From Chiloscyllium plagiosum (Eukaryota): DNA of 64,000 nt. The DNA lies in NCBI RefSeq assembly GCF_004010195.1, contig NC_057753.1, positions 3,255,514-3,319,513 of the forward strand. Direction: 5' to 3'. A program made the position numbers and the translations under genes. Below, one piece after another: positions 15,470 through 60,117 of the stretch (its first letter is position 1; every line of letters begins with the position of its first letter). The notes under the pieces were generated by a model. It did no database searches. It had not been told where the DNA came from and was given only the letters and a program-made list of their open reading frames with translations.

Positions 15470-16010
15470 GAGCGCGCACGCCTCAGGTCACAATGGGGGG
15501 GGGGGGTGGGACCCCTGATTGACAGCCGTTGCGGACCAATAGACAGAGCGGTGGCGGCCGGCCCTCCGACCAATCAGAGCCAGACCCGGGCGGGTCGCAC
15601 GCGACGGACCCCCCCACCACCCTGCGCCCGACTCGCCGCGCAGGCGCAGTTGCCGGTGGTGACCGTTGCTGGGGCCGCCCGTGGGAAGCCGTCGGAGATT
15701 GTGGACGGTGAAAGGTGAGGAATGTCACGACCTGCGGTGGACGAGGCAGTTTCCTGGAGGCTGGGAGGTGCTTCCGATCGGAATGGCAGGATCGCGGTCC
15801 CGGTCCGCGGCCGACCAGGACAAGGCCGCGGATCCGAAGCCGGGCAGTGCCCGGTGGTGGTGGTGGTGACCGCCATCTTAATTGGGGGCAAAGTCTGGCA
15901 GGGCGCATGCGTAGCATTGTCCCCCTGGCCTGGAGAGGATGGGGTGATGGCCGCCATTTTAATTGGGGGCAAGGTCGAGCAGGGCGCATGAGCAGTGCAT
16001 TCTCTCTCCC
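15470..16010 (+). promoter_or_regulatory. CpG-island promoter and non-coding exon 1 of gene B
   Basis: CpG-rich. CCAAT boxes at about 15536 and 15570, NRF1-like GCGCAGGCGCA at about 15638, splice donor aag|gtgagg at 15714/15715, and two YY1-like CCGCCATnTT motifs. Confidence 0.75.
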
Positions 16011-17790: not shown

Positions 17791-18353
17791 TCGTTTAGAG
17801 ATTCTCAATCTGCAGAGAGGAGCTCAAGAACCGAAGCCATTGCAGAGGAAAGGCAGGGAGGTGAAACCCAGGAAAGAAGGAATGTGGTGGTAATGGATTT
17901 GGGTTTCAGTCCAAGGAGGAAGGAGAGCGTGTGGGTTCTGGGATTTATAACTTTGCGCAAGAAGTGAAGGGGCAGTCTTCCATAAAAACTCGAAGTGTGT
18001 GCTCTGAATTTCTACCCTGTCCTGACAATGATGACATTTGTAAACATAGTTTATCCTTTTACAGGCTTTGAGAAGGGAAAGATTGCGAGATGCACGGCTG
18101 GGACCAAACAGCACCTCGGGATCTGAATATCATTGGCCTTTGAGTTTGGAGGGAGGAACGCTTGGCCGAAAGGGAAGATTTAAAACCTCAGTGTGAGTGG
18201 AAAAGCACGAAAACGTATACACACCCCCCTGAGTGACACTGTTCCAACAAACAGACTGTGGAAAGGAGTTTAAAACTACTACACCCTGAAAATCATATTG
18301 CACTCTTGATAGTGGGGAGAGATCATATATGTGTTGCGTGTGAACAAAGCATC

Positions 18354-19196
18354 ATGGTCAAACCGTTGACATGTGGGGACTGTGGCAAACGATTCGATTA
18401 CCCATCCCAGCTGGAAATTCATCGCCGCAGTCACACTGGGGAGAAACCATTTGTCTGTTCAGTGTGTGGGAAGGAGTTCACCAAGACAACCTGCCTCATG
18501 TTACACCAGCGCATTCACACCGAGGAGAGGCCGTTCAGCTGCACTCGCTGTGAAAAGAGGTTCATTTCTTCGTCTGACCTCAATCAGCACCAGCGGGTTC
18601 ACACCGGTGAGAGACCATTCATTTGCTCCCAGTGTGGGAAGGGATTCACAAAGTCATCCAACCTGGTGACTCACCAACGGATTCACTCTGAGGAGAAGCC
18701 ATTCCACTGCACTTACTGCGGGAAGCGTTTCAAATATTTACACAGCCTCGAAGAACACCAAAGGGTTCACACCGGGGAGAGGCCGTTCACGTGCTCTGTG
18801 TGTGGGAAGGGATTCACTCAGCCATCCAGTCTGGTGAGGCACCAGCGGGTTCACACCGGGGAGAGGCCGTTCAGCTGCTCCGTGTGCGGGAAAAGCTTCA
18901 GGCAGACGTCTGCCCTCATCACGCACCAGCGGGTTCACACTGGGGAGAAACCGTTCCCCTGCTCGGTGTGCGGGAAGGCCTTCACTGTCTCATCCACCCT
19001 CAAGGCACACCAGCAAACTCACTCTGCGGAGAAGCTCTTCGACTGCTGTCACTGTGCTAAGTCCTTCAGGTGTTCATCTGCTCTGCTCGCGCACCAGCGG
19101 GTTCACACCGGAGAGAGACCATTCATCTGCTCCGTGTGCGGGAAGGGATTCACTCGCTCCTGCAGTCTGGTCACGCATGAGCGACTCCATAAATAA
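18354..19196 (+). CDS. C2H2 zinc-finger protein (gene B), 10 fingers, about 280 aa
   Basis: First in-frame ATG at 18354 (atcATGG); the ORF track start at 18258 is GTG. Ten C2H2 fingers, ending HERLHK-stop. Acceptor ttttacag|gctttg at 18063-18064. Confidence 0.95.
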
Positions 19197-19622
19197 CTAG
19201 GGGGATTGGACTCTGCTGTCATTTATGTTGGCAAGCACATCCGGGCTTATTTGTCTGACACCTTTTGTATGTGCTGTGAGAGCAATCGGTACAACCCATT
19301 GGAGTTTAATATTCTGGATACGTCACTGATATTTAAAGCAGTGCTTTCTCACCTTCAAGATATTTGTGCTCCTTCACGTTAACTGAAGAATTCTTAATAG
19401 GAACTAATTTACAATAATATTGTGAACTTTTAGTTCAATCCTGAACGGATCTTCGGTGCAAAATCTATGATTCAGTGTCTGAAAGATGCCACTCATTAAC
19501 ATCTCCAATGAGAAAGTGCTGATTAATCCTTGCTGACAATTCTCACTGACCTGTGCACTCTTCAATGTGATACCTCAGGTTCACAGTTATCGAAAAGCAA
19601 TTCTGTGAAATGGACACCTCGC

Positions 19623-19658
19623 AGTCCTGATGAAGGGCTTATGCCCGAAACGTCGACT
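19623..19658 (+). ncRNA. Minimal type-I hammerhead ribozyme motif (Penelope-derived), intact core
   Basis: agtc-CTGATGA-a-gggc-ttat-gccc-GAAA-cg-TC-gact. Stem I is AGTC/GACT, stem II is GGGC/GCCC, stem/loop III is the palindrome ACGT, and the predicted cut follows the GUC ending at 19654. Confidence 0.75.
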
Positions 19659-20496
19659 CTCCTGCTCCTCGGATGCCGCGGTGCTTTTCTAACGCCGCGC
19701 TCTCGTCCTCAGAGTCTCCGTTCTGCAGCTTCCCATCAGTTTGAGTTGGGAAATCCCACCATTTGAGATTGAAAAGGCTGCTTCCCAAGCAGAAAGGCCC
19801 AAGCGAGGTGGGGTTGCAGCCGGATTGCTGATGCAGAAAAAGACCCATCTACTGTAACGCCCTCCTCCACCTCTGTCACGAGGTAGGATCCCTTTCAGAG
19901 AGTGTGCATGTCACAAAAAGCATCCCGATATATCAAAAAAAAGCGATAGAGGAGATTGCAGCAAGGCATTTGTTCTTCAAAATTCCATTCCTCAGATTCA
20001 TCTGCTCTTTTTGTGACCACGTGTGCTGTACAGTACGGCTGAACGAAGATTGGAATAAAACAGAGGTGTTTCTCAGCTCCCACACTGTTTGGTTTTTTTT
20101 TCCCCTTCTCCATTCTCCATCCCCTGAAGATATGAAAGGAGTTTATCCAAGACAGCAAAGTTGACCGTCAGCCCAAACTGAAAACCAAGTTAACAACATA
20201 GCACGTCTTTGTACAGAGAATTCCTCGACACGGAAGACATTACAGTTTGTAGATGGGATTGATTCCGATGCACGGTGCATGGTGAGTTGTCAGAACGGTT
20301 GTTAAAGGCTCTCATGTCTGGTTGGCTTGGTTGCTGACTGAGTTGTGTCTGATTGGATGGAAAATCAAGAGTGGGGTAAAGTGCTTCAGCAGCAGTGATG
20401 GGTCCAACATGGTCCAAGCTACACCAGGTCATGGTGACCACCATGCAACCATCACAGGCAATCACAGTACCATGTTAGAGAACTTTGGAGAATAAT

Positions 20497-32647: not shown

Positions 32648-33220
32648 CCGAAAGAACTGCGAGTGCTGTAAATCAGAAACATAAACAGAAATGTCTGGAA
32701 AAGCTCAGCAGGTCTGGCAGCATCTATGGAGAGAAATGAGACTTAACGTTTCAGGTCGGGAGACCCTTCCTCAGAACTCCAGTTCTCAATGAACAAGTTG
32801 AATGTAGGTAAAGGGCCAGCGGGAGCGGTCCAGGTGGAGGGAGAGTGTTGGAGGTGGACGAAGGGGTCCATGGGATGGGGGAGGATTCTTGTCCAAAGAA
32901 ATAGGCACGGAGGCGAAGGCAACAGAAGAAGCGTTCAACATAATGTCATGCCTGAAATTCATTAAGGTGGGGACATGGAGGGATAAAACCTTTGCTTAGT
33001 ATAGAATGTTCACCGTCAGAGAGTGGGAGGTCAGGAGGGATGGTGAATAATACAGGAGATGGAGTTGGGGAGGGGGTGGAGTCAAAAGCAAGGGGAGGGT
33101 AGGAATGATCTGGAAGGCCGTGGATATCTCTTAGTTGTTGTATCCCGTGTGCCTTGAGGCTTGAAAGCTCTGAGGAAGGGTCACTCGACCTGAAACGCTA
33201 ACTCTTGATTTGTCTCCACA
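32648..33220. mobile_element. Penelope-like fragment, family 3, with inverted termini
   Basis: Minus-strand terminus at 32648-32790 and plus-strand ctgaggaagggtcactcgacctgaaacg at about 33170. Confidence 0.6.
32741..32778 (-). ncRNA. Minimal hammerhead ribozyme motif, Penelope family 3
   Basis: Reverse complement reads agtt-CTGAGGA-a-gggtc-tccc-gacct-GAAA-cg-TT-aagt. Confidence 0.5.
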
Positions 33221-35002: not shown

Positions 35003-35783
35003 TCACAGCAGGTCAGGCAGCATCCGAGGAGCAGAAAAATCGACGTTTCAGGCAAAAACCCTTAATCAGGAATAGAGGCAGGGAGCCTCCAGGGTGGAGA
35101 GATAAATGGAGGGGTGTGGAGAAGGTAGCAAAGAGTACAATAGGTGAATGGGGGTGGGGATATAGGTGATAGGTCAGAGGGGAGGGTGGAGTGGATAGGT
35201 GGGAAGGGAGATTGACAGGTAGGACAGGTCATGAGGCTGGTGCTGAGCTGAAAGTTTGGAACTGGGGTAAGGTGGAGAGAGGGGAAATGAGGAAACTGGT
35301 GAAGTCCACATTGATGCCTTGGGGTTGAAGTGTTCTGAGGCGGAAGATGAGACGTTCTTCCTGCAGGTGTCGGGTGGTGAGGGAGCGACGGTGAAGGAGG
35401 CCCAGGACCTGCGCCTCGGGACACTTCAACCCCAGGGCATCAATGTGGACTTTAACAGTTTCCTCATTTTCCCTTCCCCCACCTCACCCTAGTTCCAAAC
35501 CTCCAGCTCAGCACTGTCCCCATGACCTGTCCTACCTGCCTATCTTCCTTTCCACCAATCCACTCCACCCTCCTCCATGACCTGTCACCTTATCCCCATC
35601 TCCACTCACCTATTGTACTCTTTGCTACTTTCTCCCCACCCCCACCCTCCTCCAGCTTATCTCTCCACCTTGCAGGCTCTCTGCCTTTATTCCTGATGAA
35701 GGGCTTTTGCCCGAAATGTCGATTTTCCTGCTCCTCGGATGCTGCCTGAACTGCTGTGCTTTCCCAGCACCACTCTAATCTAG
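35003..35783. mobile_element. Penelope-like element, inverted pair of 3' fragments
   Basis: 35003-35420 (-) and 35421-35783 (+) are largely reverse complements. The minus arm translates LQEERLIFRLRTLQPQGINVDF, the C-terminus of a Penelope-like endonuclease domain. Confidence 0.8.
35689..35724 (+). ncRNA. Minimal hammerhead ribozyme motif, Penelope family 1
   Basis: attc-CTGATGA-a-gggc-tttt-gccc-GAAA-tg-TC-gatt. The loop III palindrome is mutated. Confidence 0.5.
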
Positions 35784-48449: not shown

Positions 48450-49130
48450 CCCCCTTACCTCGGTCCAAGGCCCCAAAGGATCCTTCCACATCCAACAAAA
48501 ATTTACCTGTACCTCCACCAATGTCATCTCCTGTGTCCATTGCACCCGATGCGGTCTCCTCCACATCAGGGAGACAGGACGCCAACTTGCGGATTATTTC
48601 AGAAAACATCTCTAGGACACCCGCACCAACCAACCCAACCGCCCCGTGGCCGAACACTTCACCTCCCCCTCCCACTCTGCCGAGGACATGTAGGTCCTGG
48701 GCCTCCTCCATCGGCAAACCCTAACCACCTGGAAGAAGGACGCCTCATCTTCCGCCTCGGAACCCTGCAACCACAGGGGGTCAACGTGGATTTCACCCGT
48801 TTCCCCTCCCCCCCACCTTATCCCACTCCGAAGCCTCCAGCTCTGCACCACCCTCTTCACCTGTCCCTCGCCTTTCCCACCCGTCTGCTTCACCCGCCTC
48901 TCCGACCTATCACCGTTACCCCCACCTCCATCTATCTATTGCATTCCCTGTTACCTGCCCACCCCCCCTCCCATTTATCTCTCTACCCTCTTGGGCCACA
49001 AGCCTCATTCCTGGTGAAGGGCTGATGCCCGAAACGTCGATGCTCCTGGGACGCTGCCTGACCTGCCGTGCTTTTCCAGCGCTGCACTCTTCCACCCCGA
49101 TCTCCAGCATCTGCAGTGCTCACTTTTCCC
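48450..49130 (+). mobile_element. Penelope-like element 3' fragment with GIY-YIG endonuclease remnant (in intron of gene E)
   Basis: Translates FTCTSTNVISCVHCTRCGLLHIRETGRQLADYFRKHL and LEEGRLIFRLGTLQPQGVNVDF. Hammerhead variant CTGGTGA at about 49011. Confidence 0.85.
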
Positions 49131-59966: not shown

Positions 59967-60117
59967 GGCATAAGCCCTTCTTCAGATTCCTGAAAAAGGG
60001 CTTATGCCCGAAACGTCGATTCTCCTGCTCCTTGGATGCTGCCTGACCTGCCATGCTTTTCCAGCAACACATTTTTCAGCTCCGATCTCCAGCATCTGCA
60101 GTCCTCACTTTCTCCCA
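59967..60117 (+). mobile_element. Penelope-like terminus with short inverted 5' arm and 18-bp target-site duplication
   Basis: Flanked by gttcattataatagatcg (59949-59966) and gttaattataatagatcg (60118-60135). Confidence 0.8.

Follow-up and report, generated by a model that had tools for sequence, protein, structure and literature searches.

Does a hammerhead ribozyme motif that lies in sense orientation behind a zinc-finger gene of Chiloscyllium plagiosum act on the mRNA of that gene? The initial annotation considered it a possibly exapted self-cleaving element that sets the 3′ end or the stability of the mRNA. We analysed the 64,000-nt stretch of contig NC_057753.1 that contains the gene (the window, to which all positions refer) and conclude that the motif is very probably an uncut passenger, likely inert, in a 3′ UTR that probably ends by way of the AATAAA at 20054.

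Structure of the hammerhead motif

The motif spans 36 nt, and its letters and coordinates agreed with the initial annotation, as did its position 430 nt behind the stop of gene B (19196) on the same strand. Its parts are as follows.

19623–19658, plus strand: minimal type I hammerhead without helix III, with a palindromic ACGT at 19650–19653 and a predicted cut between 19654 and 19655
19623–19626, plus strand: 5′ strand of stem I, AGTC
19627–19633, plus strand: CTGATGA box, followed by an extra A at 19634
19635–19638 and 19643–19646, plus strand: stem II, 4 bp
19647–19650, plus strand: GAAA, followed by CG at 19651–19652 and TC at 19653–19654
19655–19658, plus strand: 3′ strand of stem I, GACT

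The conserved core of the minimal hammerheads of Penelope-like elements (PLEs), CUGANGA plus GAAA plus UH, was present (19627–33, 19647–50 and 19653–54). Also present were helix II with G10.1–C11.1 (G19635–C19646), the extra base between positions 9 and 10.1 (A19634), the palindromic 15.1–16.1 without helix III (ACGT, 19650–19653) and the short helix I (4–5 bp; here AGTC/GACT) in type I topology. By its sequence, the gene B hammerhead belongs to this known kind. Since nothing lies between C15.2 and G16.2, helix III is impossible in a single strand, consistent with the earlier proposal of a minimal type I hammerhead that would need a dimer.

The pattern of core plus stem II occurred 23 times in 448 kb and not once in any of five shuffles, and the reversed-pattern controls also gave zero; the motif is real, beyond chance. 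The bare CTGANGA box occurred at chance frequency (46 vs 47) and is therefore uninformative alone. An Rfam scan at the motif returned zero hammerhead matches at E ≤ 5 and five weak, unrelated matches.

The Penelope-like repeat family

The motif forms the head of a repeat fragment with a deletion of 9–10 nt after 19678.

19625–19735, plus strand: 5′-truncated Penelope-like end piece (pseudo-LTR stub) of an older, CpG-rich subfamily; right end approximate

The Penelope origin put forward in the initial annotation was corroborated, as the same repeat follows remnants of reverse transcriptase (RT) and GIY-YIG domains elsewhere and is a terminal repeat of an element with both. GIY-YIG-like remnants, read by eye, precede it at window positions 49011 and 45372, and it was found at seven of the nine loci picked with a GIY-YIG-like peptide. 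In L114, stretches read by eye are presumably RT motifs. Among the atlas look-alikes of that region (0.93–0.95), PF01541 occurred in 11–19% of members, and Pfam gave nothing on the broken, frameshifted element pieces.

The family is very large, with 52,878 exact intact hammerhead cores in the genome. An identical 30-mer was found in 923 genome copies and a fully pairable stem I, A(A/G)TC..GAT, in 1,512. The exact AGTC/GACT 36-mer was unique in the genome, and AGTC also stood in front in three other copies. The window contains 11 other related stretches, eight with ATTC on the 5′ side; stem I of the gene B copy is better paired than in these siblings, as had been noted, but the 1,512 pairable copies deprive it of special status. 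Of the copies selected by their tails (82 in 464 kb), 54 had a recognisable core and 21 passed the intact test (one of the 21 from another family). The start of the gene B fragment at the ribozyme was likewise seen as described, but it is no special sign: a rough classifier placed such starts in 17 of 37 regional and 18 of 30 genome-wide copies, with a few miscalled by eye (at least 11 of the 30 genome-wide hold). Neither a fully paired stem I nor a start at the ribozyme is unusual in the family.

By random placement, approximately 0.0065 exact sense cores are expected per 880-nt UTR, or approximately 130 for an assumed set of 20,000 UTRs of that length. Of 11 regional zinc-finger frames, four were followed by a sense copy no more than 3 kb behind the stop (two intact, that of gene B included) and two by an antisense copy.

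Many copies, regional ones and L001–L030 included, begin a few bases before CTGATGA, approximately 30 nt short of the predicted cut rather than at it, and such starts may mark the start of the element RNA or a stop of reverse transcription. Head-to-head inverted repeat pairs joined at the ribozyme were observed at window positions 59985/59990 and 53582/53590 and in L027/L028, and pairs of this type often create an AATC/GATT stem I. At window position 32769 (minus strand), a second, more distant family has a hammerhead-like head (CTGAGGA), a longer stem II and a related tail.

Gene B and probable transcription across the motif

The gene and the elements behind it are listed below.

18354–19196, plus strand: gene B coding sequence, 280 aa, C2H2 zinc-finger array (PF00096, nine stretches); start codon placed by comparison with paralogues
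19197–20075, plus strand: putative 3′ UTR of a short isoform, tiled by X1 and X4 contigs, with one X21 read pair ending at 20075
20054–20059, plus strand: AATAAA polyadenylation signal, with CA at 20074–75 and a U-rich tract behind
20282–20287, plus strand: GTGAGT, putative splice donor 627 nt downstream of the cut site

Eight pairs of run and stretch were aligned. The samples with informative reads or contigs were X1 (type unrecorded, 93 million letters), X4 (RNA by guess) and X21 (a poly(A) single-cell run); a further run, X22, contributed zero placed reads. Contigs from X1 and X4 tiled gene B from the coding region into the UTR, upstream and downstream of the motif alike. Contigs of the two samples departed from the window sequence at 20282, where the site reads CATG/GTGAGT, and continued for 579 and 509 letters, respectively. 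We infer splicing at this site, although a structural DNA difference may account for the departure instead. In X21, bin depths indicated one read pair that lay clear of both the repeat and the coding fingers, with mates at approximately 19813–19962 and 19995–20075. The second mate was partly aligned and ended at the CA 16 nt behind AATAAA, where a genomic A run is absent; with one molecule and a read end derived from bin depths, 20075 is likely a poly(A) site. From the stop (19196) up to 20054 neither AATAAA nor ATTAAA was found, in agreement with the initial annotation.

Gene B RNA apparently extends 420–630 nt beyond the cut site. Judged from contigs guessed to be RNA and the one read pair, read-through past the cut site is likely. 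The same contigs and read pair support the earlier placement of the motif in the sense strand of a transcribed 3′ UTR, which is likely correct, and the motif does not appear to set the end of this UTR. As to whether transcripts cover 19654 or end there, both sides were covered, but the locus-specific contigs cross the cut site by 5–8 letters only (bridging rule: 31 letters on each side), and poly(A) would also be present on a 3′ product of cutting. Contig ends at 19650–19653 were considered as cleavage products and rejected, as X6, likely a DNA run, ends there too.

The putative donor at 20281–20287 lies 1,085 nt past the stop codon and is apparently used. An intron so far into a 3′ UTR normally makes the isoform a target of nonsense-mediated decay. 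Decay by way of the 20281 donor would be a more ordinary way of tuning gene B than a ribozyme.

The UTR stretch 19300–19560 is common to paralogous zinc-finger UTRs and is possibly a common regulatory element; zinc-finger paralogues on C44 and C45 (L033–L041) share 100–250 nt of 3′ UTR with 70–85% identity. Paralogues with this insertion were absent among 46 matches. Displacement of an ancestral poly(A) signal by the insertion was considered and rejected, since just one of nine paralogous loci had AATAAA at the corresponding place. In a protein-based search for orthologues, identity was at most 64% among the best 120 of 1,331 gene B homologues, with ray proteins highest. Upstream of the gene, a CpG island at window positions 15470–15850 has a pair of CCAAT boxes and, near 15715, a site resembling a splice donor; an acceptor lies at 18064/18065. 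These are likely the promoter and first exon of gene B and the beginning of its coding exon. One X4 contig was without two letters at 18338–18339, just upstream of the putative start, and the first 115 letters of another mismatched 18809–18923. These odd contigs possibly represent a variant allele of gene B.

Sequence decay of the gene B copy

The alignment comprised 65 of 101 collected copies, the other 36 having been dropped as younger subfamilies by a word filter. The gene B copy had no private changes in the motif, four in 19659–19707 and approximately ten aligned differences in the last 30 nt. The initial annotation had set a perfect core against a remainder deleted and diverged from 19660 on. 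The perfect core and the 9–10 nt deletion were found, but 19659–19676 equals the subfamily majority at every position and is as perfect as the core. Approximately four private events, the deletion included, fall in 19677–19707, where most apparent changes are common to other copies, and the heavy divergence of the stub is confined to approximately 19708–19735.

The 27 regional older-type copies had a mean of 3.4 motif changes, and two of them had no private motif changes. Those two had 7 and 11 changes in the proximal tail, compared with four in the gene B copy, and one of them probably belongs to a younger subfamily. The chance of a perfect core in an old copy is roughly 3–7%, which is mildly unusual and expected many times genome-wide. 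The gene B copy contained 11 CpG in 109 nt, while the mean of 54 copies was 3.6 and the maximum 9. Since CpGs were kept along the copy, with eight of the 11 outside the motif, their retention points to local escape from CpG decay rather than to selection on catalysis. A DNA search with the tail of the stub (common words skipped) returned the locus itself and one 51-nt match only, so no subfamily with that tail was found.

Orthologue and natural variants

A contig of organism C corresponding to 19206–19648 differed by 15 substitutions and two indels (3.4% divergence) and kept the 5′ half of the motif. Because the orthologue carries this half, the insertion is older than the split from organism C. 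Thirteen differences were listed, none of them in 19582–19638 (chance 0.14), and two unlisted differences, each no more than approximately 10 letters from an end, may fall in the motif. The probability of no change in the 16 motif letters is 0.57, and one orthologue with the 5′ half only has no statistical power.

Among the samples, X4 contained two forms, which part from each other at 19639, where loop II begins. X1 had three differences, one of them listed; by comparison with the contig alignment described above, the other two fall within 19639–19648, either in the loop, whose letters may vary freely, or in stem II. Two X1 variants in 19639–19648 compared with one in the preceding 442 letters is a significant excess if that placement holds (Fisher 0.001). 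The longest record of X6 (probably DNA) was identical to the window, and neither X1 nor X4 had a difference in 19650–19735. Variation thus appears at least not depleted inside the motif.

Predicted folding

In a nearest-neighbour model, which leaves out core tertiary contacts, Mg2+ and proteins, the active homodimer had −20.3 kcal/mol and two monomers −26.5 kcal/mol, placing the dimer 6.2 kcal/mol above. In the monomer fold that it predicts, CGUC is base-paired to the CUGAUGA box. The pairing probability of stem I was 0.66–0.92 for the motif alone, 0.02 in a 141- or 251-nt context and 0.40–0.46 in 451 nt, and that of stem II was 0.57–1.0. Sense copies that could serve as partners in cis were found neither within 16 kb downstream nor from 15,500 to the motif; the next sense copy, at 35693, is 16 kb away and has an altered core.

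Two features of the tail were noted in the predicted fold.

19677–19699, plus strand: inner tail hairpin, 7 bp, predicted
19711–19722, plus strand: tail segment reverse-complementary to 19649–19660 at 10 of 12 positions, which in the predicted fold ties up the 3′ strand of stem I

The complementarity of 10/12 compares with 7/12 for the family majority, whose register is almost identical, and with at most 8/12 in 64 natural copies. Simulated decay reached 10/12 with P 0.001–0.004, a post hoc and uncorrected value, the fold having been seen first. The predicted occlusion of the stem I 3′ strand was 0.92 and was matched by one of the 64 copies. According to the available text of PMC5453318, template switching between imperfect inverted repeats makes change clusters of this type. 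Template switching is likely the plain explanation of the tail complement, whose match consists of two tracts with a 2-nt gap rather than one continuous copied tract. Whatever its origin, the predicted tail helix would make cutting less likely.

Possible roles of the motif

In the reading that we hold to be very probable, the truncated end of a Penelope-like element, with a minimal hammerhead at its head, would have inserted in sense behind gene B. The motif would ride along uncut in the 3′ UTR, with AATAAA at 20054 setting the end. Cutting would need a second copy, pairing through ACGU and swapped stem I strands, because a single copy cannot form helix III. A cis partner appears to be absent nearby, and folding predictions leave the monomer either misfolded or caged by its tail. 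The perfect core may be due to the copy-wide escape from CpG decay together with the few percent of old copies that would be perfect by chance, and template switching across a latent inverted repeat, from one arm to the other, is the likely source of the clustered far-tail changes. Several observations count against a mere passenger: the absence of private motif changes where older regional copies average 3.4; the unique AGTC/GACT together with the lack of a listed organism C difference in 19582–19638 (chance 0.14); the bridging of the cut site by at most 7–8 contig letters and the rise of stem I pairing to 0.40–0.46 in the 451-nt context; and the 10/12 tail complement, rare under random decay (P 0.001–0.004, post hoc).

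Exaptation would mean that the hammerhead dimerises with element RNA or with a second molecule of gene B mRNA, cuts the gene B message and thereby sets the 3′ end or lowers stability in a concentration-dependent manner. We consider this very unlikely, even though the perfect core in an old copy, the unique 4-bp Watson–Crick stem I, the sense position in a transcribed UTR and the 5′ half kept in organism C favour it. Family RNA is also abundant (146 of 148 placed X21 reads were in the 95–99% class, with nearly all depth on the repeat), and Clec2 provides a precedent (PMC2950038, available text). However, transcripts appear to run 420–630 nt past the site, and the dimer is predicted to be unfavourable. 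In trans, the usual AUUC of a partner would form a U–C mismatch with GACU, so that the better 5′ strand is no help. Each of the three supposed signs of selection proved either widespread among family copies or attributable to retained CpGs. The proposed setting of the 3′ end or stability is unsupported, because the RNA appears to end downstream (at approximately 20075, with the putative splice at 20281 also downstream), the features are common, variants occur in the motif, a cis partner is absent nearby and published monomers were inactive.

Alternatively, the core may be kept whole while selection shaped the tail into a helix covering the catalytic strand, to defuse a harmful insertion or to let cutting occur only when a protein or RNA opens that helix. 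This idea, which we judge improbable to the same degree, draws on the tail complement (10/12 vs at most 8/12 in 64 copies, P 0.001–0.004) and the occlusion of 0.92 reached by one copy in 64, but the P value is uncorrected and the pattern was noticed after looking at the fold. A template switch gives such clusters without selection (PMC5453318, available text), and one core substitution would be a cheaper way of defusing. While 19650–19735 was without difference in X1 or X4, such invariance is expected at low divergence, and the organism C comparison covers positions up to 19648, before the tail.

An incidental, unselected leak, by which a small share of gene B RNA would be cut on meeting Penelope RNA or protein, has in our estimation an equally slim chance; such a leak could affect every transcript that contains an intact sense copy. 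The core is intact, very many intact copies exist in the genome, and the protein of an anole element enables cleavage in vitro (PMC11167929); however, the stub is short, deleted and refolded, and the suggested protein site lies >100 nt into the element (PMC11167929). Sense copies were also not depleted behind zinc-finger genes (four sense vs two antisense among 11 genes, a tiny sample). Also very unlikely is a domesticated caged switch, in which core and 4-bp stem I are kept, the tail helix locks the strand, and element RNA or protein opens it, triggering dimer-type cutting and coupling the mRNA level to transposon activity.

As an uncut passenger, the motif has little importance of its own; it shows that intact sense copies are tolerated in host mRNAs, in line with the idea that minimal Penelope hammerheads have almost no activity away from their element. 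Were the caged or the exapted reading true, a minimal dimer-type hammerhead would be in host use and a zinc-finger gene could sense transposon RNA. Because natural alleles differ inside the motif, the gene B locus is a cheap test case.

Comparison with known systems

The Clec2 hammerheads of rodents and other mammals likewise lie in the sense strand of a 3′ UTR. In the available texts (PMC6155905, PMC2950038) they are discontinuous type III ribozymes, occur in several mammals and lowered a reporter by 80%. Unlike these, the gene B motif is a minimal type I hammerhead in a high-copy repeat, and its activity is putative; the Clec2 kind has helices I–III and monomer activity, and helix III would be impossible in the gene B motif.

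The non-LTR retrozymes (Li, Clavereau, Pollet 2026, 10.64898/2026.07.22.740005) are also derived from PLE pseudo-LTRs (pLTRs) according to the available text, which places exonic Xenopus copies mainly in last exons and 3′ UTRs. They form tandem arrays of repeats, each with a hammerhead, whereas the gene B motif is a single copy; one of nine tested retrozyme dimers cleaved.

The PAc (Poseidon) hammerhead of the green anole (Frangieh et al. 2024, PMC11167929) is similar in that a pLTR hammerhead is followed by approximately 100 nt to the element end, and its parent element encodes an RT with a C-terminal GIY-YIG domain, which we count as a likeness. Unlike PAc, the gene B copy is a non-autonomous stub in a host UTR. 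The anole hammerhead did not cleave unless the protein of the element was present, zero RNA reads began or ended at its cut site, and the protein was suggested to bind the RT initiation site, >100 nt into the element (PMC11167929).

A literature search on shark Penelope hammerheads found no account of this motif. The closest relatives are the minimal hammerheads in the pLTRs of metazoan PLEs (Cervera and De la Peña 2014, PMC4209133). In the available text of that study, cartilaginous fish are not named among the hosts in the main text, and the supplements may list some; the monomer did not cleave, and dimer cleavage was low. The same text gives a helix II of 7–8 bp in Schistosoma, compared with 4 bp here, and approximately 4,000–9,000 copies for coelacanth and Xenopus, compared with 52,878 exact cores here. 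The likenesses described there are a type I fold without helix III, a palindromic 15.2–16.2, the extra base between 9 and 10.1, G10.1–C11.1 and a 4-bp helix I, and, as for the gene B copy, an occurrence mostly as single dispersed copies from truncated elements.
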